64,000 bases of DNA from a virus. The position numbers and the translations under genes are program-made. Location of the stretch: IMG/VR virus record IMGVR_UViG_3300033064_003894, positions 75,838-139,837 of that record, one strand, 5' to 3'. Positions 5,794-60,683 of the stretch are shown here, one piece after another. Position 1 is the stretch's first letter; the number at the start of each line of letters is the position of its first letter. Below the pieces are notes generated by a model. That model did not search any database, had not been told where the DNA came from, and saw nothing but the letters and a program-made list of their open reading frames with translations.

Positions 5794-7650
5794 ATGGAAA
5801 CTAACCTAGGAAACAACGTAGGTCTATGGCCTCAAAAGATCTTTGAGTACGTTAGCGCAGAATACAACTATATAATTCCATATATACAGAATATATCATT
5901 CAAGAGAATTGACATTGTAAATGGAGCGGCAATTGGTGGCATCACGATTGGTAATAAATCTTCTGGAATGATGGCAATTGTGCCATTAATAGTCTCAGAA
6001 TTCAACCTTGCCCCAATGGACGTAATGATTATGGAAGAAGACTTGTATATTCCAATGACAGAGGCAAGAGTTTTGGAATATCTTGGACAAAACTTTGGGT
6101 CTCACATACCTAAAACAAATAATAACTATAGCACAGGAGGACGTATGCCAGTGACCCCTTTGCCTCCTGGGCACAGAAATGGCGACGTAAATAAGTATTC
6201 TAGTATATTTAGGCACGCATCTGAAAAGGCTGGCTTTGGACCAGGAGTACTTAAAATTATAATGGACAGTATGCCTCACCTTATAAAAAAAGACGAGTCT
6301 GTTGCAAAGAGAGTTATGTCAGTGATCTCAGACATCCCGTACAGAGCTGTATGGATAAAGAGAGACTCTGACAAGAATACATGGACTGCTATATGTTCTG
6401 ATGACGCAGGAAGAATAAATTTAATCGATGGCAAGGATGCGATAATACGAACTCTTTCTAAGTTTGATCCAGAGGTTGCCGAAGAGATGAAGGTGTCTGA
6501 CAACATATATTTTAGTAAATATGGGAATAAGCCTATTGTCTTTGAGTCCATATCAGAGCTACCTGAAGTTCTTAGTAACACAGGAAGGGTTGCCGTGTTT
6601 GGGAAAAACAAAGATCTTATTGTAGGTCAATTTTATCATAGAGTTTCAGATATGGCAGGGAGGAGTCTAGGCCTGAGCATTTGGTTTAATGACAGCAACT
6701 GGTCAGTATCAGAGGAGATGACTGGTTACATGATACGAGAGGGACATGCTGATCGTACTCCTACGGTTAAAAATAGAAGAAGTTACTGCTTTAGTTTTAT
6801 TCATAGTGACAATGACTATATGTGCACAATGCCTTTCAAGGTTGTGTCTGAACCTAAAATAGAGGGTGGAGACTCTAAAGAAATGATAGTAGATATTGTC
6901 GACTCTAATGGGAAAGATGCAGTTCTATATTATAGCTCAGATGTATTCAAGCCTCACTGTAATAAAGCAGGAGATAAAATAAGATACTATATTCCAAGAG
7001 ATTGGAAGATGCATGATGTAGGAGAGTGCAAAATATCTCTATCGTATGTAGGAGGAAAATCATTAGCAGATTTGGCGTCAACTGCAGCAAACACTATATC
7101 TCTGTCATTATTGGATGGCGTGTATTACATATCAGGAGAGCATTCAAAAAATTTGGCAACATCATTCGACGGAGATTATGATCCCAGGCTAGGGAAGTCT
7201 GCAGACACATTAAATAAGGCCATATGGAACCTGGTAATGTTTGGCATGTCAGAAGGAGATGCAAGAATGTGTATTTCTTCATTGCACGAACACGGAGGCA
7301 GGATAACTATAGGGAATATAGCACCATTTGTAGCGTACGAGCCAAAGATTAGGGGAATACCTACGGAGCTTATAAGTCTAGCAAGTTCTGTATCTAGCGA
7401 ATCAGTTGACTCTATCCTTGGTCTTGGCATGTCTGACATATTGTCAAGGGATGAGCTAAGCCAGCATTCGCTCGAAATAAGAAAGCTTGAGAGCGTTTTG
7501 GCGAAACTGCTATTCAATGTTAGGATAGGTGCGTTAAACATTGAAGAGGATATGATAGTCAAGGCAATGAAATATCTTTCTGTTGTCGTAGACGAGATAG
7601 AAGCGTCAAACTCTTCAATAGTAAGAGAAAAGAAGAAAGAGGGACTATAA
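5794..7650 (+). CDS. Hypothetical (probable virion) protein
   Basis: 618-aa ORF abutting the spike gene in a + strand structural operon. Confidence 0.45.
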   Translation: METNLGNNVGLWPQKIFEYVSAEYNYIIPYIQNISFKRIDIVNGAAIGGITIGNKSSGMMAIVPLIVSEFNLAPMDVMIMEEDLYIPMTEARVLEYLGQNFGSHIPKTNNNYSTGGRMPVTPLPPGHRNGDVNKYSSIFRHASEKAGFGPGVLKIIMDSMPHLIKKDESVAKRVMSVISDIPYRAVWIKRDSDKNTWTAICSDDAGRINLIDGKDAIIRTLSKFDPEVAEEMKVSDNIYFSKYGNKPIVFESISELPEVLSNTGRVAVFGKNKDLIVGQFYHRVSDMAGRSLGLSIWFNDSNWSVSEEMTGYMIREGHADRTPTVKNRRSYCFSFIHSDNDYMCTMPFKVVSEPKIEGGDSKEMIVDIVDSNGKDAVLYYSSDVFKPHCNKAGDKIRYYIPRDWKMHDVGECKISLSYVGGKSLADLASTAANTISLSLLDGVYYISGEHSKNLATSFDGDYDPRLGKSADTLNKAIWNLVMFGMSEGDARMCISSLHEHGGRITIGNIAPFVAYEPKIRGIPTELISLASSVSSESVDSILGLGMSDILSRDELSQHSLEIRKLESVLAKLLFNVRIGALNIEEDMIVKAMKYLSVVVDEIEASNSSIVREKKKEGL

Positions 7651-10708: not shown

Positions 10709-13498
10709 ATGCAGGAGATAAAGATACCAACTAGTAAGCTTATAGAAAAGGCTTTCTATGTTGACATGGACCTTCCGTTCTCATTTAAGGAGCGTGAGTA
10801 TCTTCTTCCTATATACGACAATAATGATAAAATCATTGTTCTATATTTTGCAAGACAGTCGGAAAAAAGCGTTTTAGAGTTTTCTCGTGTAATAAACCAA
10901 TATGGCGAAAGAGTCCAAATAAAAGATTTGAATGTTGGAGATAAAGTCGCAACATTAAATACCGATGGCGTGACCATTGGCACAAGCCGTGTCATTTGGA
11001 AATCAAGAAGATACAAAAAAGACTGCTTAAGACTAAATACAAAACTAAATTATTCAATAGAGGTTGCAGGAACTCATCCAATTAGGCAGTGGAATCGTTG
11101 GACGGAAGCGAAAGCTTTAGCAGTTGGAGATAGAATTGCAACAGCACGTTTTATTGAGACGAATCATGAAGAAAATAATATACCAGATGATGTAATTAAA
11201 TTTATAGGATATATGATTGCTGATGGTAGTATTATAAAAGCGATAAGCTTTACGCAACGTATAGATTCTCTAGTATTGAAAGACTTTAGGGATATTTGCT
11301 CTAATATGGGATTTGTATATAGAGAACGTTACAGAAATAGTGATGTATTAATGCTTCACTTTGTGACTAAATCTCCGGCAGCAGAGTTATTGAGAAAATA
11401 TGGTATTTACGGAAAATCTTCTTTTAATCATGCACTCCCCGCCTGTTTAATGAGGTTAGATCTTAGACAAACGAAAATACTTATTGAATCATTGTGGTCG
11501 TGTGATGGATATGTTAAGAAGTGCGAAGGTGAAGAGACTGACTACAAAATTTCTTACTGTTCTGTATCTAAAGGGCTATTAGAACAAATGCAGGCATTGC
11601 TCTGGAAATTTAAGATAGCTTCAAGAATAAGAAAATTTAAGCCGACCTTATATAAAGGAACGGGAAAGTATGCATATAGTTTATATGTAAGAACTAGAGA
11701 GAGTCAAAATATTTTCCATGAAACATTTAAAATTATTGGTAAAGAGTCATGCTTTGTTTGTGCCCAATCAAGAGACAACAGAGATACATTTCCTATTGAA
11801 ATCAATGAGGATATATATGAATTAGAAAGGACTAGGGTGAAACCGAGAAGTCATAAGCCTCTATATAAAAACGGTCTAAGGAAGACCTTAGAATATCCCT
11901 TAAGCAAAGTTAAATTCCGCAAATACTTAAAGCATTTCAGGACAGCTGGAGGTTATGATCAAGCATTGGTGGATAAATTAGATATACACTCAGACACGGA
12001 CCTTTTTTGGGATAAGATTGAAAGCGTAGAAGATATAGGAGAACAGTGGTGTTACGACATTGAAGTAGAGGGAACGAATAATTTCTTGGTTGATGGGGTT
12101 GTCACTCATAATAGTACAACATTGGCAAATAAAATACTTTTAAATAGTATTACGAACAGGAGATTTAGATCTCTTTACGTCACCTCAGCGGATGCTCAGG
12201 CTAAAGAATTTTCAGTAGATAAGCTGCAACCTAAATTAAAGTATTCTCCGACAATAAATAGGCACTTTTGGGGCTCTCAGCCAGAAGCAGACAACGTGTT
12301 TTCTAAAGAGCTTAAGAATGGAAGCAGAATATTGATAAGGAGTATGTTTAAGAGTGCAGATAGGATAAGGGGAATTTCAGCAGACCTCCTGGCGGTCGAC
12401 GAATTGCAGGACATAAATCCTGATTTCCTCGCAGTAGCGGAAGAGTGTCTTTCTCACTCAAATTATAAGCTAAGAATGTATGCTGGGACGCCTGACACCG
12501 CTTTGGATGCATTAGATCAGGTCTGGTCATTTTCTGATAAAACAGAGTTCGTATTTAAATGTCCTAAAGGCCATTGGAACAGACAAGACCATGCAATGGT
12601 GGCAAGAATTACCAAGGCTGGAATTTTATGCAAAACATGTGGAGAGGTATTAGATAGGCGTACCGGTGAATGGGTGGTTATGAATAAACAAGGAAGATAT
12701 AAAGGATACAGAACTAGTCAAATGATGGTGCCGTGGATAACGGTTGATGAGCTTATAGATAAAAGAGAGCGTTACTCATCTAAGAGGTTTTTTAACGAAG
12801 TTGCAGCTCTTCCTTATGATGCGATAGGTGCTCCTATAAATGAAGGGCACTTAAGAAAATGTTGCGATGAAGGGTTTAAGATGATCAAAGACGGGGTCTA
12901 TCCAAAAATAGATAGAAATGTTCATGTATTTATGGGCTCCGATTGGGGCTCTGGGTCCGCCTCATACACAGTAATAAGTTTTTGGGCTCATATAGGTGGG
13001 AAGTGGACGCTGTTAAGGGCAAAGAAATATACAGGCGTCGAGTCTGATCCGGCTTTACAAATGAATTTAATACTATCTGAAATGGACAGAATTAATCCTA
13101 TAAGAGTAGGGTCTGACTGGGGGTTTGGATTCCTTAACAACGCTCAACTAAAACTTCATTATAAAAAGGGTGAGGTGTGTGAAATATTTAGCAGTTCTGG
13201 AGCTAGCCCGATAACTAGAGACAGCTTATCTGGAAGGTTTGTGATCAACAGGTCATATATGATGAGCAGAGTATTTAATATGATATTAGAGGAGAGGGTA
13301 AGGTTCCCGTGCTGGGAAGACTTTGCTCAGTTTGCTCCAGACATTCTTTCTATTAGAGCTGACGACCCGGATGAAAAGCCAGGACAGAGACAGATAAAAT
13401 ATGTACGTGTTGCGCCAGATGATTTTTTTCATTCAATGATGTACGCATTAATTATGGGTGAAATTCATACAGGAAAGCTCTTGATAGATGCCATTTGA
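10709..13498 (+). CDS. terL: Terminase large subunit with LAGLIDADG intein
   Basis: Walker A ARQSEK|STT split by an intein; IRGISAD..VDELQD Walker B; AGTP; Zn finger; GSDWG and PDDFFHS nuclease motifs. Confidence 0.9.
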   Translation: MQEIKIPTSKLIEKAFYVDMDLPFSFKEREYLLPIYDNNDKIIVLYFARQSEKSVLEFSRVINQYGERVQIKDLNVGDKVATLNTDGVTIGTSRVIWKSRRYKKDCLRLNTKLNYSIEVAGTHPIRQWNRWTEAKALAVGDRIATARFIETNHEENNIPDDVIKFIGYMIADGSIIKAISFTQRIDSLVLKDFRDICSNMGFVYRERYRNSDVLMLHFVTKSPAAELLRKYGIYGKSSFNHALPACLMRLDLRQTKILIESLWSCDGYVKKCEGEETDYKISYCSVSKGLLEQMQALLWKFKIASRIRKFKPTLYKGTGKYAYSLYVRTRESQNIFHETFKIIGKESCFVCAQSRDNRDTFPIEINEDIYELERTRVKPRSHKPLYKNGLRKTLEYPLSKVKFRKYLKHFRTAGGYDQALVDKLDIHSDTDLFWDKIESVEDIGEQWCYDIEVEGTNNFLVDGVVTHNSTTLANKILLNSITNRRFRSLYVTSADAQAKEFSVDKLQPKLKYSPTINRHFWGSQPEADNVFSKELKNGSRILIRSMFKSADRIRGISADLLAVDELQDINPDFLAVAEECLSHSNYKLRMYAGTPDTALDALDQVWSFSDKTEFVFKCPKGHWNRQDHAMVARITKAGILCKTCGEVLDRRTGEWVVMNKQGRYKGYRTSQMMVPWITVDELIDKRERYSSKRFFNEVAALPYDAIGAPINEGHLRKCCDEGFKMIKDGVYPKIDRNVHVFMGSDWGSGSASYTVISFWAHIGGKWTLLRAKKYTGVESDPALQMNLILSEMDRINPIRVGSDWGFGFLNNAQLKLHYKKGEVCEIFSSSGASPITRDSLSGRFVINRSYMMSRVFNMILEERVRFPCWEDFAQFAPDILSIRADDPDEKPGQRQIKYVRVAPDDFFHSMMYALIMGEIHTGKLLIDAI
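10868..12112 (+). mobile_element. Intein (Ser1...His-Asn, +1 Ser) with LAGLIDADG endonuclease
   Basis: SVLEFSRV start, HPI block B, GYMIADGS and LWSCDGY, YDIEVEGTNNFLVDGVVTHN|S. Confidence 0.9.
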
Positions 13499-22789: not shown

Positions 22790-22958
22790 GTTACCTCAAA
22801 TTACTGTAATCATGTGTACCTCCTTTGTTTGAGTTAATGGAAAGCGGGACGGATTTTGTTCCAGGCTCCGTCCCTATTTTACCTTCTTCTTGACCAGCAC
22901 TAAAATTGACTGAGAGATTGGTGGGGGAGGTGGGACTTGAACCCACGACCAACGAATT

Positions 22959-23408
22959 CACATTTGTGTTGGTTTCCCAACTCTGTGGACTATTTCACAC
23001 CCGTCGACTTTACGTTACGGGCCGGGTTGTTATTTCCGGTAATTAAGAAGACTGTACTTCTCCGGTAGTCTCTGAACCTTCAAGCGGTGTACCGCAAGAT
23101 TGGCTGCAGATTGCCATTTCCGATAAGTTATAAGAAGTCATCCATTTTTTTATGGCTGCATGACTTACTCCAAACATTTTCCCAACTTTGTTGAACGAGT
23201 TTTCATTAAGAAGATTTGTAAGTTCCTCTCTTGATGGACGATCAACTTTTCTGGAATGTATCCTGTAGCACTGAACGGAGCAGAACTCTCTCTGTCTTCG
23301 CTGCAATGTAGACCCACAGTGACACCTTTCTGTTACCTTATCGACTTTAGGTTTCCTGCAATTAAACCCGATCCCAACGGATCTTTCGAGTCCATTGGCA
23401 CCTAGCTG
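22959..23408 (-). mobile_element. Group I self-splicing intron (IC3-like)
   Basis: 5' exon ends in U, intron ends in G; IGS GTG; P AATTGCAGGAAAC, Q AATCTGCAGC, R GTTCAGAGACTA, S AAATAGTCC. Confidence 0.9.
23043..23360 (-). pseudogene. Homing endonuclease remnant inside the intron (Zn finger + HTH only)
   Basis: CHC...FCSVQC, VGKMFGVSHAAIKKW; frame reads into the intron core (EGSET); no nuclease domain and no ATG upstream of the Zn finger/HTH. Confidence 0.6.
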
Positions 23409-23570
23409 ATGAGTTCGCTGCTCTAAACCAACTGAGCTACACCCCCATTTTTATTTAAGGGAATGGCACGGGGTTTATCCGTAATTATTAGCCTACTTGG
23501 TTTGATTTTTCTAGAATATTACAAACGGTTCGCTATCTAACTGATTATCTAGTAATCACGCATTCTTTTT

Positions 23571-57124: not shown

Positions 57125-57215
57125 GAGATCAATTGTATGGTGTCAAATTACAGAAATCAACCTTAAATGCGGTTGATTTTTAACACACAGGATGTACAAT
57201 CCCTGTCCAACAAAA

Positions 57216-60200
57216 ATGAATAAAATTGCAATTAAAAGTAAGACAGAGCCAATAGAATTGACTGAACCGCATGTAACTCCAAATGCCTTGAAAGTTTTAA
57301 ACAGCCGATATTTAAAGAAAGACGAAAGGACAGGAGAGGTAATAGAAGACCCTAAGGGTATGTACCTACGCATCGCTTCAGCCGTGGCTTCAGCAGAAGA
57401 AACGGATGAAGCAGTAGAGGAGTGGACAAGAACTTTTTATAATATTATGGCAACTAATAAGTTTGTTCCTAACACGCCAACGGTTATGAATGCTGGATGT
57501 AGGTCAGGATCGTTAAGTGCTTGCTATCTATTCGCCGTAGAGGACTCATTAGACAAAATATTTGATACATTAAAAAACGCAGCCATGACTCAAAAGACTG
57601 GTGGTGGAGTTGGATTCGCCTTTTCGAGATTAAGGCCAGAAGGAGATTTAATAAAAGGTAGCGGAGGAGAGAGCCCTGGCCCGCTGTGTTTTATAGATAT
57701 TTATAGCTCCTCTACTGAATCTATACAGCAAGGGTCAGCAGGAAGACGCGGTGCGAACATGGCAGTTTTGAGCTGTACGCACCCGGACTTAGTTGAGTTC
57801 ATCTGTGCCAAGGAGAATCTTGACCGGTGGAACAACTTTAACGTGAGCGTCGGCGTTACAGACGAGTGGATGAAAAATGCAAAAGAAAGACCTAAAGATA
57901 GAGCGAAGGTTAAAAATCCAAGAACAGGAAAATACGCCTTTCTTGGAAAGAGCAACGAGGGTCGTCGCAGATCCGTTATTGATTATATCTCTTATGATGA
58001 GTTTGATGTCACTGATGGGATTGATACAGATGTTGAAAAGTTTTGGACTTACGGTGACATTTTAGATTTAATTATTCATAAGGCATGGGAAAATGCCGAG
58101 CCTGGTTTGTTATTTCTTGATAGATCAAACGAGACAAACCAGGTGCCGAACTTGGGGGAATATGAGGGCACGAATCCATGTTTAGCAAAGGGTTCTTTAG
58201 TTATGACTGGCTCTGGGTATAAGCGGGTTGAAGAGTTTGTTATAGGTGACAAGATTTTAAATGCAGATGGAAATTCACGCCCAATAGAATCTATTGAAAA
58301 ACACGAAAATTATCCTGTGTTTAAGGTTTGCTTTTCGGACGGATCAGAGCAGGTCGTCACAGAGGCGCACCAATTCTATGCTGTCAAAAAATCCAGTATG
58401 AAGTCAGAGAAATTCTTTGAGCCCATCTGTTTGAAAGATTTAGAGGTAGGAGACTGCATTAGGGTTAGTCTTGGAGGAATGCCAAACAATCAGGTTGAAG
58501 ACCGACCAGAGGCTCTTTCTGATAGAGAGTATGGAGTTATGTTAGGCGTTGTTTTAGGAGATGGTGGATGGACAGATGGCCAAAATAAGTTTCTGTCTAT
58601 TTCGTCACACATTGACGAAGAAGAATGGAACACGCATTTGAAATCTATATTTGGAGAACATAAGGGAGAGAGGCATAAATGCTCTACCGGTGAATATGAC
58701 AAATCGATAAGATACTTTTATTACAAGTCAAGTGAGGCGGTGTCAATCCTTGAGCAGTCGAAAATAAAAAAGGCAAAGTCAATTCATAAAGACATTCCAG
58801 AAGAATATATTAATAGCAATGAAGAGTTTTTGTCTGGACTTATAGATGGTCTATTCTCAACGGATGGCAATGTTTCGTTGGGAGGAAGTCATCCATTAGT
58901 AAGGTTCTCGTCAGGCAGCAAAGACCTCGCCATTGCGGTCAAAAGAATACTTGGATTGTTCAATATACACGGAAGAATGTACAGCTATGAGCGAGATGAA
59001 CACATAATTGATGGAAGAAAAATTAAAGGTAATTCTTTTAAACATGAGGTTATCATAAGTGGAAGAGACATTACTGAATTCAATAAGCGCATAGGCCTTT
59101 CTCATCCAAAGAAAAAAGAGGCTCTTATGAAAGCTGCAATGTTTGCTCGCTCTACCAATGCATTGCGAAGCACTAAAATAGTTAATATAGAGCCATTCGG
59201 ATTTGAAGATGTATATGATTTATATGAGCCAGTAACTGATACTTGGATATCAGAAGGCATAGTATCAAGAGGATGCGGCGAACAATTTCTTCTTCCATAC
59301 AGCTCATGCAACCTAGGATCAATCAATTTAGGAAAATATATAGACAATGGTGATTTTGATTTTACGTTATTCAGGGAAGACGTAAAAAAGTGTGTAAGGT
59401 TTTTAGATAATGTGGTAACCGTAAATAACTATCCAGTTCCTGAGATCAGGGAGATGTCTGATAAGGAAAGGAGGATTGGACTAGGTGTAATGGGTTGGGC
59501 TGACCTTCTTTTCAGGCTTGGGATTAGATACGGATCTGATAAATCATTTGAATTAGCTGGATCAATCGCATACCATCTTCAAGATGCCGCGATTACGGAA
59601 AGTGAGGAGCTTGTGTCTATGGAAGGGAAAGAGCCTTTTGGTGCGTGGGAAGGAAGTCGCCCTCAAATAGATGGACTTCCTAAGAGAAGAAATTCTTATG
59701 TCTCAACAATAGCACCGACCGGAACAATATCAATTATTGCTGGGTGTTCAGGAGGTATAGAGCCTATATTCTCGTTGGCGTTTAAGCGTCAAGTTATGAA
59801 AAACAAAGATGGTGTACCGGTAGTAATGAATGAAATACAAAATGATTTCCTGAAGGCTCTTAAGGAGGAGGGCTTAGAGGAGAAGCTGGACGAAATCGTT
59901 GAGCATTGCATGACGCATGGAACGATACAGGACTGCAGTCTTGTGAGTGATGAGATGAAGAATGTGTTTGTTTCTGCAAGGGATGTAGCACCGGAGGAAC
60001 ATGTAAAAATGCAGGCGGCTTGGCAACAGCATATAGACAATTCTGTGTCAAAAACGATTAATATGCCTAAAAGTGCAACAGAGAATGAGGTTAGAATGGC
60101 TTACTCTCTGGCATGGGAAACTGGATGTAAGGGGATAACCGTATATAGGGACGGTTCGAGAGAAATGCAGCCGATGGCATTGTCTGTCAAGAAAGATGTG

Positions 60201-60683
60201 GCTCCATCTCCTGTAAAGCTTGATGATGTCCTTCCTTCGATTAGAGTTAAGCAGTCCTCTCCGTTTGGGAACATGCATGTTAACGTCGTTCGAGACCATG
60301 ATGGAAGGGTAAGAGAGATCTTTGCGCAGGTTGGTAAAGCTGGAGAGGTGATTAACGGAGACTTAGAGGCCATATGCAGACTTTCCTCTCTATATCTAAG
60401 GTCTGGCGGGGAAATGGAAAGAGTTATAAATCAGTTAGATGGAATTGGGACATCATTTCAGATACCTTCCGCTGAAGGGAAAGTGATGTCAATAGCAGAT
60501 GCTTTAGCTAAAGCACTAAAGAAGGCTACTAATGTACCTAATCAACCTGAAGCGGATGTGGTAACTAAGTACGCCGACACGGTCTTTAAGCTACAGTGTC
60601 CGTCTTGCGATGAGGTGTCAGTTGTAAAGTCTGAGGGTTGTACCTCATGTCTTACTCCGGGTTGTGGTTGGACAGCCTGTTAA
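57216..60683 (+). CDS. nrdJ: Class II (B12-dependent) ribonucleotide reductase with intein and C-terminal TSCPD-like domain
   Basis: PNTPT.MNAG, LSACY, GGGVG, RRGANM, TNP|CGEQ, CNLGSINL, TIAPTGTIS, SKTIN, KGITVYRDGS, terminal Zn ribbon. Confidence 0.93.
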   Translation: MNKIAIKSKTEPIELTEPHVTPNALKVLNSRYLKKDERTGEVIEDPKGMYLRIASAVASAEETDEAVEEWTRTFYNIMATNKFVPNTPTVMNAGCRSGSLSACYLFAVEDSLDKIFDTLKNAAMTQKTGGGVGFAFSRLRPEGDLIKGSGGESPGPLCFIDIYSSSTESIQQGSAGRRGANMAVLSCTHPDLVEFICAKENLDRWNNFNVSVGVTDEWMKNAKERPKDRAKVKNPRTGKYAFLGKSNEGRRRSVIDYISYDEFDVTDGIDTDVEKFWTYGDILDLIIHKAWENAEPGLLFLDRSNETNQVPNLGEYEGTNPCLAKGSLVMTGSGYKRVEEFVIGDKILNADGNSRPIESIEKHENYPVFKVCFSDGSEQVVTEAHQFYAVKKSSMKSEKFFEPICLKDLEVGDCIRVSLGGMPNNQVEDRPEALSDREYGVMLGVVLGDGGWTDGQNKFLSISSHIDEEEWNTHLKSIFGEHKGERHKCSTGEYDKSIRYFYYKSSEAVSILEQSKIKKAKSIHKDIPEEYINSNEEFLSGLIDGLFSTDGNVSLGGSHPLVRFSSGSKDLAIAVKRILGLFNIHGRMYSYERDEHIIDGRKIKGNSFKHEVIISGRDITEFNKRIGLSHPKKKEALMKAAMFARSTNALRSTKIVNIEPFGFEDVYDLYEPVTDTWISEGIVSRGCGEQFLLPYSSCNLGSINLGKYIDNGDFDFTLFREDVKKCVRFLDNVVTVNNYPVPEIREMSDKERRIGLGVMGWADLLFRLGIRYGSDKSFELAGSIAYHLQDAAITESEELVSMEGKEPFGAWEGSRPQIDGLPKRRNSYVSTIAPTGTISIIAGCSGGIEPIFSLAFKRQVMKNKDGVPVVMNEIQNDFLKALKEEGLEEKLDEIVEHCMTHGTIQDCSLVSDEMKNVFVSARDVAPEEHVKMQAAWQQHIDNSVSKTINMPKSATENEVRMAYSLAWETGCKGITVYRDGSREMQPMALSVKKDVAPSPVKLDDVLPSIRVKQSSPFGNMHVNVVRDHDGRVREIFAQVGKAGEVINGDLEAICRLSSLYLRSGGEMERVINQLDGIGTSFQIPSAEGKVMSIADALAKALKKATNVPNQPEADVVTKYADTVFKLQCPSCDEVSVVKSEGCTSCLTPGCGWTAC
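58179..59273 (+). mobile_element. Intein with LAGLIDADG endonuclease, atypical C-terminus (...IVSRG, +1 Cys)
   Basis: CLAKGSLV, VTEAHQF block B, GVVLGDG, GLFSTDG, VYDLYEP block F; inserted in NP|CGE. Confidence 0.88.

Follow-up and report, generated by a model that had tools for sequence, protein, structure and literature searches.

A phage-borne variant of the Azoarcus-site tRNA group I intron carrying an extra hairpin and the remains of an HNH endonuclease gene

Introduction

Azoarcus-type introns interrupt bacterial pre-tRNA-Ile genes, are 204–205 nt long, and lack an ORF as well as any hairpin separating P7 from P3'. A census of tRNA group I introns (Williams, 2020) covered cellular genomes only and defined the classical bacterial classes, including Ile2.5Ug. 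Phage group I introns were stated in a 2014 review of bacterial group I introns to lie, to date, all in protein-coding genes, despite the many tRNA genes of phages (PMC3984707). Group I introns also occur in the T-loops of tmRNAs (PMC11915505). In describing 'enigmatic' tRNA introns of Lak megaphages, Devoto et al. (2019; PMC6784885) state that these have no precedent among phage tRNAs; in the available text of that paper these are named without an Rfam class, whereas the intron analyzed here is clearly group I. The tRNA-fMet gene of Synechocystis PCC 6803 contains a group I intron that encodes I-Ssp6803I (Bonocora & Shub, 2001, cited in PMC3984707). That intron resembles the phage lineage in interrupting a tRNA anticodon loop and in carrying a homing endonuclease gene aimed at tRNA genes, but it occupies a different site (fMet.2Ug), is bacterial, and has an intact endonuclease. 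The literature searched contained no account of a group I intron in a phage tRNA gene.

The DNA analyzed (the window, 64,000 nt) comprises bases 75838–139837 of a 139,837-nt linear IMG/VR phage record (completeness estimate 79%) from an uncultured freshwater phage of ~140 kb. An annotation made from the window's letters (the original prediction) had placed a group I intron in a tRNA(CAU) gene at the Azoarcus tRNA-Ile site.

Materials and methods

The window was scanned with Rfam models at gathering thresholds and at relaxed thresholds, and with ARAGORN by default and with the intron option (-i). Relatives of the intron were sought with a motif consisting of its P6 loop and R element, which matched at least 118 IMG/VR stretches, and tRNA 3' halves following motif matches were identified by ARAGORN -i and a T-arm scan. 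Azoarcus-type pre-tRNA-Ile genes (L153–L157) were taken from Rhodocyclaceae, Propionivibrio, Brachymonas and Burkholderiaceae genomes.

Eleven introns (seven phage, four Azoarcus-type) were aligned. Loop inserts were trimmed by script before alignment because MAFFT misaligned the 5' halves when full-length introns were used. Helices (P1, P1 extension, P3, P4, P5, P6, P7, the extra two-part hairpin, P8 and P9) were set by column, and pairing was scored as aligned, with the partner slid by 1–3 columns, and in 500 column shuffles. Codons were counted in 93 ORFs (35,837 codons) of the whole record.

Results

Boundaries of the split gene. The insertion follows the fifth anticodon-loop nucleotide of a CAU tRNA (CUCAU|intron|AA), and the limits of the 450-nt insert at CAU^AA were found exactly where they had been predicted (Table 1). 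The U/omega-G boundary and the 3-bp CAU/GUG P1 were likewise recovered: U 23409 can wobble-pair with G 23401 in P1, and G 22959 terminates the intron. Boundaries were set at CAU|...G|AA because the group I rules (U–G wobble, terminal G) pick them, and U-1 and omega G occur at CAU|..G|AA in all ten aligned homologues as well (six phage, four Azoarcus-type). When joined, the exons form a 78-nt cloverleaf with one U-U mismatch at 6–67 in the acceptor stem. The 23-mer spanning the spliced junction is present, exact, in ten other viral contigs, each time within an uninterrupted tRNA(CAU) gene that is 79–87% identical to the spliced product.

Table 1. Positions of the split tRNA(CAU) gene and its parts in the window, followed by the same-site introns of other viral contigs.
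Feature	Position	Strand	Description
tRNA(CAU) gene, split	22919-23446	minus	5' exon, intron and 3' exon
tRNA 5' exon	23409..23446	minus	38 nt; acceptor, D arm, 5' anticodon stem, loop CUCAU
Group I intron	22959..23408	minus	450 nt; U-1 (23409) precedes it, omega G (22959) is its last nucleotide; from RF00028 match, helices and covariation
Internal guide GUG	23399..23401	minus	intron G8-U9-G10; pairs with exon CAU (23411-23409) as P1, U-1 opposite G8
P2 hairpin	23374..23398	minus	GAAA tetraloop; folds in 11 of 11 sequences and in the MFE fold
P5-loop insert	23128..23336	minus	209 nt, intron positions 73-281; Zn-finger and HTH remnant of an HNH endonuclease
Start-less open frame	23043-23450	minus	135 codons; TAA stop at 23045-23043, inside P7.1
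Frame residues 28-135	23046..23369	minus	aligned with sister HNH proteins; read through P3-P7
3' half of ribozyme core	22959..23127	minus	P5', P4', P6, P7, P7.1, P3', P8, P7', P9 (GAAA loop), omega G
Extra hairpin P7.1	23036..23065	minus	30 nt here; between P7 and P3'; from alignments; name given here
tRNA 3' exon	22919..22958	minus	AAUUCG...ACCA; loop AA, 3' anticodon stem, variable loop, T arm, acceptor, encoded CCA
L062 intron			235 nt; no ORF
L137 intron			232 nt; no ORF
L117 intron			240 nt; no ORF
L074 intron			704 nt; HNH ORF, 179 aa, at 1805-1266 (minus) of its sequence
L115 intron			777 nt; HNH ORF, 205 aa, at 7028-7645 of its sequence
L087 intron			712 nt; HNH ORF, 204 aa, at 2257-2871 of its sequence

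Both junctions were bridged, with no differences, by contigs from four freshwater DNA runs (all of one study; two of the runs may be the source sample), and no intron-less joint was found in the DNA contigs of these runs. No RNA run was listed as containing the stretch. A pattern search with the 3' junction gave 0 matches. The pattern GCGAACTCAT-N7-GGTGCC matched viral contigs 20 times, in each case by chance and in coding DNA, and these matches were discarded. Neither the flanking 208-aa protein, which has no relatives in viral contigs, nor the ligase-like neighbour, the relatives of which are distant and without tRNA genes, led to a sister phage whose site is empty.

It had been suggested that standard tRNA scans may miss the gene, and they did: default ARAGORN reported 15 tRNAs in the window with the split tRNA(CAU) gene absent from its output, and Rfam at gathering thresholds reported only tRNAs, passing over both the split gene and the intron. 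ARAGORN -i, which had been proposed as a check, recovered the split gene with a 450-nt intron but placed both junctions 2 nt upstream and labelled the product tRNA-Gln(CUG).

Fold and covariation. At relaxed thresholds, RF00028 aligned over the full model (1–253) at 22966–23421 (minus) with the P, Q, R and S stretches in place, in agreement with the elements named in the original prediction and with the covariance-model check suggested there. The score was 49.5 bits (E 1.7e-11; 7.3e-13 over the whole record), 0.5 below the cut-off of 50, and this intron was the sole RF00028 match in the phage record. The near miss is not a warning sign, because genuine Azoarcus-type introns reach only 52–55 bits on the same model.

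Across the 11 aligned introns, standard pairs occupied 91.6% of cells, compared with 33–46% when the partner was slid by 1–3 columns and a maximum of 77.5% in the shuffles. Compensatory double changes were counted in 31 of the 53 scored pairs (4–14 with a slid partner; shuffle maximum, 25). The guide GUG was unchanged in 11 of 11 introns, and the pairs of the P1 extension covary. The tRNA(CAU) phage intron itself pairs at nearly all positions, with two U-U mismatches in P6 and with the core helices and family-invariant core columns all intact. An unconstrained MFE fold of the precursor (z = -4.0) recovered P2, P4, P5a (the helix closing the insert), P6, P7.1, P8, P9 and the anticodon stem. P7.1 was present in seven of seven phage introns at a length of 30–36 nt, with compensatory changes in seven of its nine pairs.

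Short contigs from the same lake metagenomes match only the P7/hairpin stretch (window 23037–23081), with 2–4 differences; those samples probably contain other introns of the subfamily.

Comparison with Azoarcus-type introns. A parallel between the 5' part of the intron and Azoarcus pre-tRNA-Ile had been proposed. Direct alignment with the Azoarcus-type genes bore this out and extended it to the 3' end. In common are the CAU tRNA, the insertion at CUCAU|AA, and a CAU/GUG P1 with a 7-nt loop followed by GUGCC; then a 21-nt P2 hairpin with a GAAA loop, GGGAU, AAUU..GAAACCUAA and a CCUAA-type P5; and, at the 3' end, AUAGUCC-P9(GAAA)-ACACAAA..G|AAU. Core identity between the phage intron and the Azoarcus type is 58–60%. 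The IC3 subgroup is usually described as compact in its core, lacking additional helices between P7 and P3' (the Azoarcus-type introns aligned here have none), with GAAA loops in L2 and L9. The P1, P2, P5, P8 and P9 of the phage intron match IC3 members, and a conserved 30-nt hairpin lies between P7 and P3'; this departure of the 3' half from Azoarcus had been overlooked in the original prediction. Also unlike the Azoarcus type are the GUACAC-capped P6, the Anabaena-like P8 and the 209-nt endonuclease remnant in L5. As judged from the alignment, the core is IC3-like with what appears to be a phage-lineage addition. These comparisons support a predicted place for the intron in the Ile2.5Ug class of Williams (2020), at the Azoarcus tRNA-Ile site. 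The phage-type motif (GTACAC...R element) did not turn up in a sample of 401 genomes from the phylum to which a Propionivibrio genome belongs.

With its GUACAC P6 loop, R element and extra hairpin, the 3' half of the phage intron can be aligned with the intron of a tmRNA gene in LR756501 and with introns in protein genes of crAss-like phages; these lie in other host genes and have other P1 guides. In LR756501.1, a 735-kb uncultured phage (L002, 1071–1660), a tmRNA-like gene has its T arm apparently split by a 232-nt group I intron, which scores 96 bits on RF00028. The record carries no annotation, and a weak tmRNA match ends exactly at the intron start.

Phage relatives. A tRNA 3' half followed the motif in 11 of 123 motif matches. 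Six full-length tRNA(CAU) genes split at the identical point were obtained (Table 1), five inside contigs of 56–171 kb and one (L074) in a contig of 5.5 kb, most of them in tRNA clusters or near other tRNA genes. No description of these six introns was found in the literature searched. They have the site and the architecture of the window's intron, including the extra hairpin, and a core identity to it of 60–69%; L074, L115 and L087 encode intact HNH_3 endonucleases of 179–205 aa, of which the window's intron keeps the C-terminal half only.

Other split tRNA genes were seen in viral contigs. In L115 (6086–7771, in an 85-kb contig), two split tRNA genes adjoin, each with its own HNH ORF: tRNA-Arg(UCU), with a ~606-nt intron, and the tRNA(CAU) gene with the 777-nt intron. 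In phage tRNA clusters of L123 (2922–3192) and L147 (5522–5813, minus), tRNA-Asn(GUU) is split after U35 (CUGU|UAA) by introns of 197 and 218 nt that belong to the same subfamily as the tRNA(CAU) phage introns. In L055 (5298–6108, minus) and L087 (3099–3394), tRNA-Leu(UAA) on phage contigs is split at the classical cyanobacterial/plastid U34|A35 site by introns of 727 and 212 nt by ARAGORN boundaries.

Endonuclease remnant in the P5 loop. A decayed HNH homing-endonuclease gene, likewise overlooked, lies in the P5 loop and makes up roughly half of the 450 nt. The insert is closed by an 8-bp helix (23344–23337 with 23127–23120). The 135-codon frame that reads through it contains no start codon. 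Its residues 33–111 match PHROG 15471 (HNH endonuclease) at profile positions 98–176 of 183 (E 1.3e-12), and residues 28–135 are 47% identical to residues ~100–205 of the intact ORFs of L115 and L087 (E 7e-29 and 9e-26). Neither the HNH catalytic motif nor an HNH_3 (PF13392) domain was found in the remnant, which holds only the C-terminal Zn-finger/HTH part. In the intact sister ORFs, HNH_3 occupies residues ~31–80 and is coded in the P1 loop, the region missing from the remnant; with a P1 loop of 7 nt, the window's intron has lost the nuclease part.

The HNH frames of L074, L115 and L087 start in the P1 loop and continue through the guide and P2–P5, with the Zn-finger/HTH part in L5. Those of L115 and L087 run on through P4', P6 and P7 and end at the TAA of the extra hairpin, and that of L074 stops earlier, in P4'. 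Most of the 5' two-thirds of the ribozyme doubles as coding sequence in L087 and L115. The window's intron is without the nuclease-coding P1-loop insert, as are the ORF-less copies, but with the L5 insert; by its sequence it appears to be a homing element that is half decayed and stands between the relatives with an ORF and those without. The 209-nt insert could slow folding of the ribozyme.

The Synechocystis enzyme I-Ssp6803I presumably has a PD-(D/E)XK fold, other than HNH. Homologues of the intron HNH protein (PHIKZ296; 42–44% identity) lie just downstream of tRNA genes in phiKZ (L159, 267776–270670) and in Pseudomonas phage BRkr (L158). They were rejected as intron-borne, being free-standing and without a ribozyme. 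Immediately upstream of the 89-nt tRNA-Asn annotated in phiKZ is a fragment resembling tRNA-Asn (AGAGCAAATGACTGTTA).

Discussion

The covariance model, the same-site homologues with their compensatory changes, the uninterrupted alleles and the alignment with Azoarcus-type genes confirm, at the level of sequence comparison, that the predicted group I intron at the Azoarcus site of a phage tRNA(CAU) gene is real. It is a variant carried by a phage, set apart by its additional hairpin and the remains of an HNH gene. The explanation favoured, with good confidence, is that a phage intron of the Ile2.5Ug class, a decayed member of an HNH-mobile lineage, would splice to give an AUA-reading tRNA.

Four other explanations were weighed. 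Two concern whether the gene and its junctions are what they seem. IMG/VR contains prophage fragments, and the related matches L118 and L127 lie at contig ends, as might be expected if the phage did not encode the split gene and it were instead a product of chimeric assembly or a tRNA of the host at the border of a prophage. The gene, however, is located ~99 kb into the 139.8-kb contig amid 15 other minus-strand tRNA genes, with phage genes around it that include those for terminase, sheath and an RNAP-like protein, and separate contigs of four runs bridge both junctions; this origin is considered extremely improbable. Scarcely more probable are junctions 2 nt upstream and a tRNA-Gln(CUG) product, as in the ARAGORN -i output. 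An intron shifted in this way would end in G here as well, but C instead of U would stand at -1 and the splice site would fall off the U–G wobble, and the same shift in L137 yields an intron ending in C. The CAU junction 23-mer is, moreover, uninterrupted in the ten contigs, and the tRNA body shares 64% identity with tRNA-Gln(UUG) of the window, compared with 78–87% for CAU tRNAs.

The remaining two accept the intron and its boundaries and differ in what becomes of the transcript. A decaying, splicing-dead relic within a tRNA pseudogene, with the phage using host tRNA-Ile2, would accord with the endonuclease gene being already truncated, with the two U-U mismatches in P6 and the one in the acceptor stem, and with the Rfam score slightly under the cut-off. 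It is at odds with core helices and family-invariant core columns that are all intact, with the clean 8-bp helix closing the insert, with exons that form a normal cloverleaf with encoded CCA, with a sequence identical in four runs, and with ATA being the most frequent Ile codon of the phage (1390 of the 2735 counted in the whole record, 51%); a relic is accordingly judged improbable. A somewhat stronger case, still unlikely, can be made for an intron that splices to a second elongator tRNA-Met and not to tRNA-Ile2. Without modification a CAU anticodon reads AUG, 'Met' is the ARAGORN label of the uninterrupted relatives, and acceptor pairs 4–69 and 5–68 are G–C in the spliced tRNA and differ from the E. 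coli TilS acceptor-stem determinants, C4–G69 and C5–G68. Yet the phage has a distinct tRNA-Met(CAU) at a distance of 600 nt, with only 59% identity to the spliced tRNA, which is closest to Azoarcus-type tRNA-Ile2 (78%) and adjoins tRNA-Ile(GAU), which precedes it by 124 nt. ATA is also used more than ATG (38.8 versus 25.1 per 1000 codons), and the phage tRNA set mostly reads A-ending codons. From this context (AUA use, a separate tRNA-Met, and identity), the split gene is likely to encode a tRNA-Ile2 of the lysidine type.

For the preferred explanation, splicing to an AUA-reading tRNA, the following course is proposed. The split gene would be transcribed together with the adjacent minus-strand tRNA genes, and the intron would fold with the 8-bp helix keeping the P5-loop insert outside the core. 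Free guanosine would attack 3' of the U in the CAU/GUG P1 helix, whereupon the terminal G would enter the guanosine site and the exons, held by the anticodon stem, would be joined. The ligation product would be a 78-nt tRNA with the loop CUCAUAA, in which host TilS most likely would turn C34 to lysidine, so that the tRNA would read AUA, the phage's commonest Ile codon. Modification would depend on TilS of the host because no TilS gene (PF01171) was found in the phage record. The intron itself would stem from a phage-borne lineage moved by an HNH homing endonuclease. With its nuclease-coding part lost and only a DNA-binding remnant left, the tRNA(CAU) phage copy is probably no longer mobile for that reason.

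The classical Azoarcus-site intron has phage-borne cousins, some with a homing endonuclease, and these bear on the spread of tRNA introns between bacteria. A role of phages as vectors of tRNA introns, as suggested earlier, is made plausible by the three sister phage introns whose HNH gene is intact. A wider proposal is put forward as speculation and is doubtful: that phage tRNA clusters might be a principal reservoir and vehicle, so far overlooked, for tRNA group I introns, mobile via an HNH gene read through the ribozyme core, that the ORF-less bacterial Ile2 (Azoarcus-type) intron might be a stranded relative, and that the supply of AUA-tRNA might here depend on ribozyme splicing. If it were true, ribozyme splicing could gate translation or shield the tRNA gene from rival endonucleases. 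Phage tRNA inventories and codon-supply analyses are incomplete because standard tRNA finders miss such split genes, and the gene missed here probably serves the Ile codon that the phage uses most.

The window also codes for a large terminase, a tail sheath, RNA-polymerase-like and ribonucleotide-reductase proteins, and 17 tRNA genes; Arg codons in the whole record are mainly AGA and AGG. In the ribonucleotide reductase large subunit (1163 aa; window 57192–60683), a gap of ~470 aa separates the RNR-matching parts, and the terminase (929 aa; window 10709–13498) has ~470 additional N-terminal residues. Both inserts match one PHROG (30356) and may be inteins or other mobile inserts.
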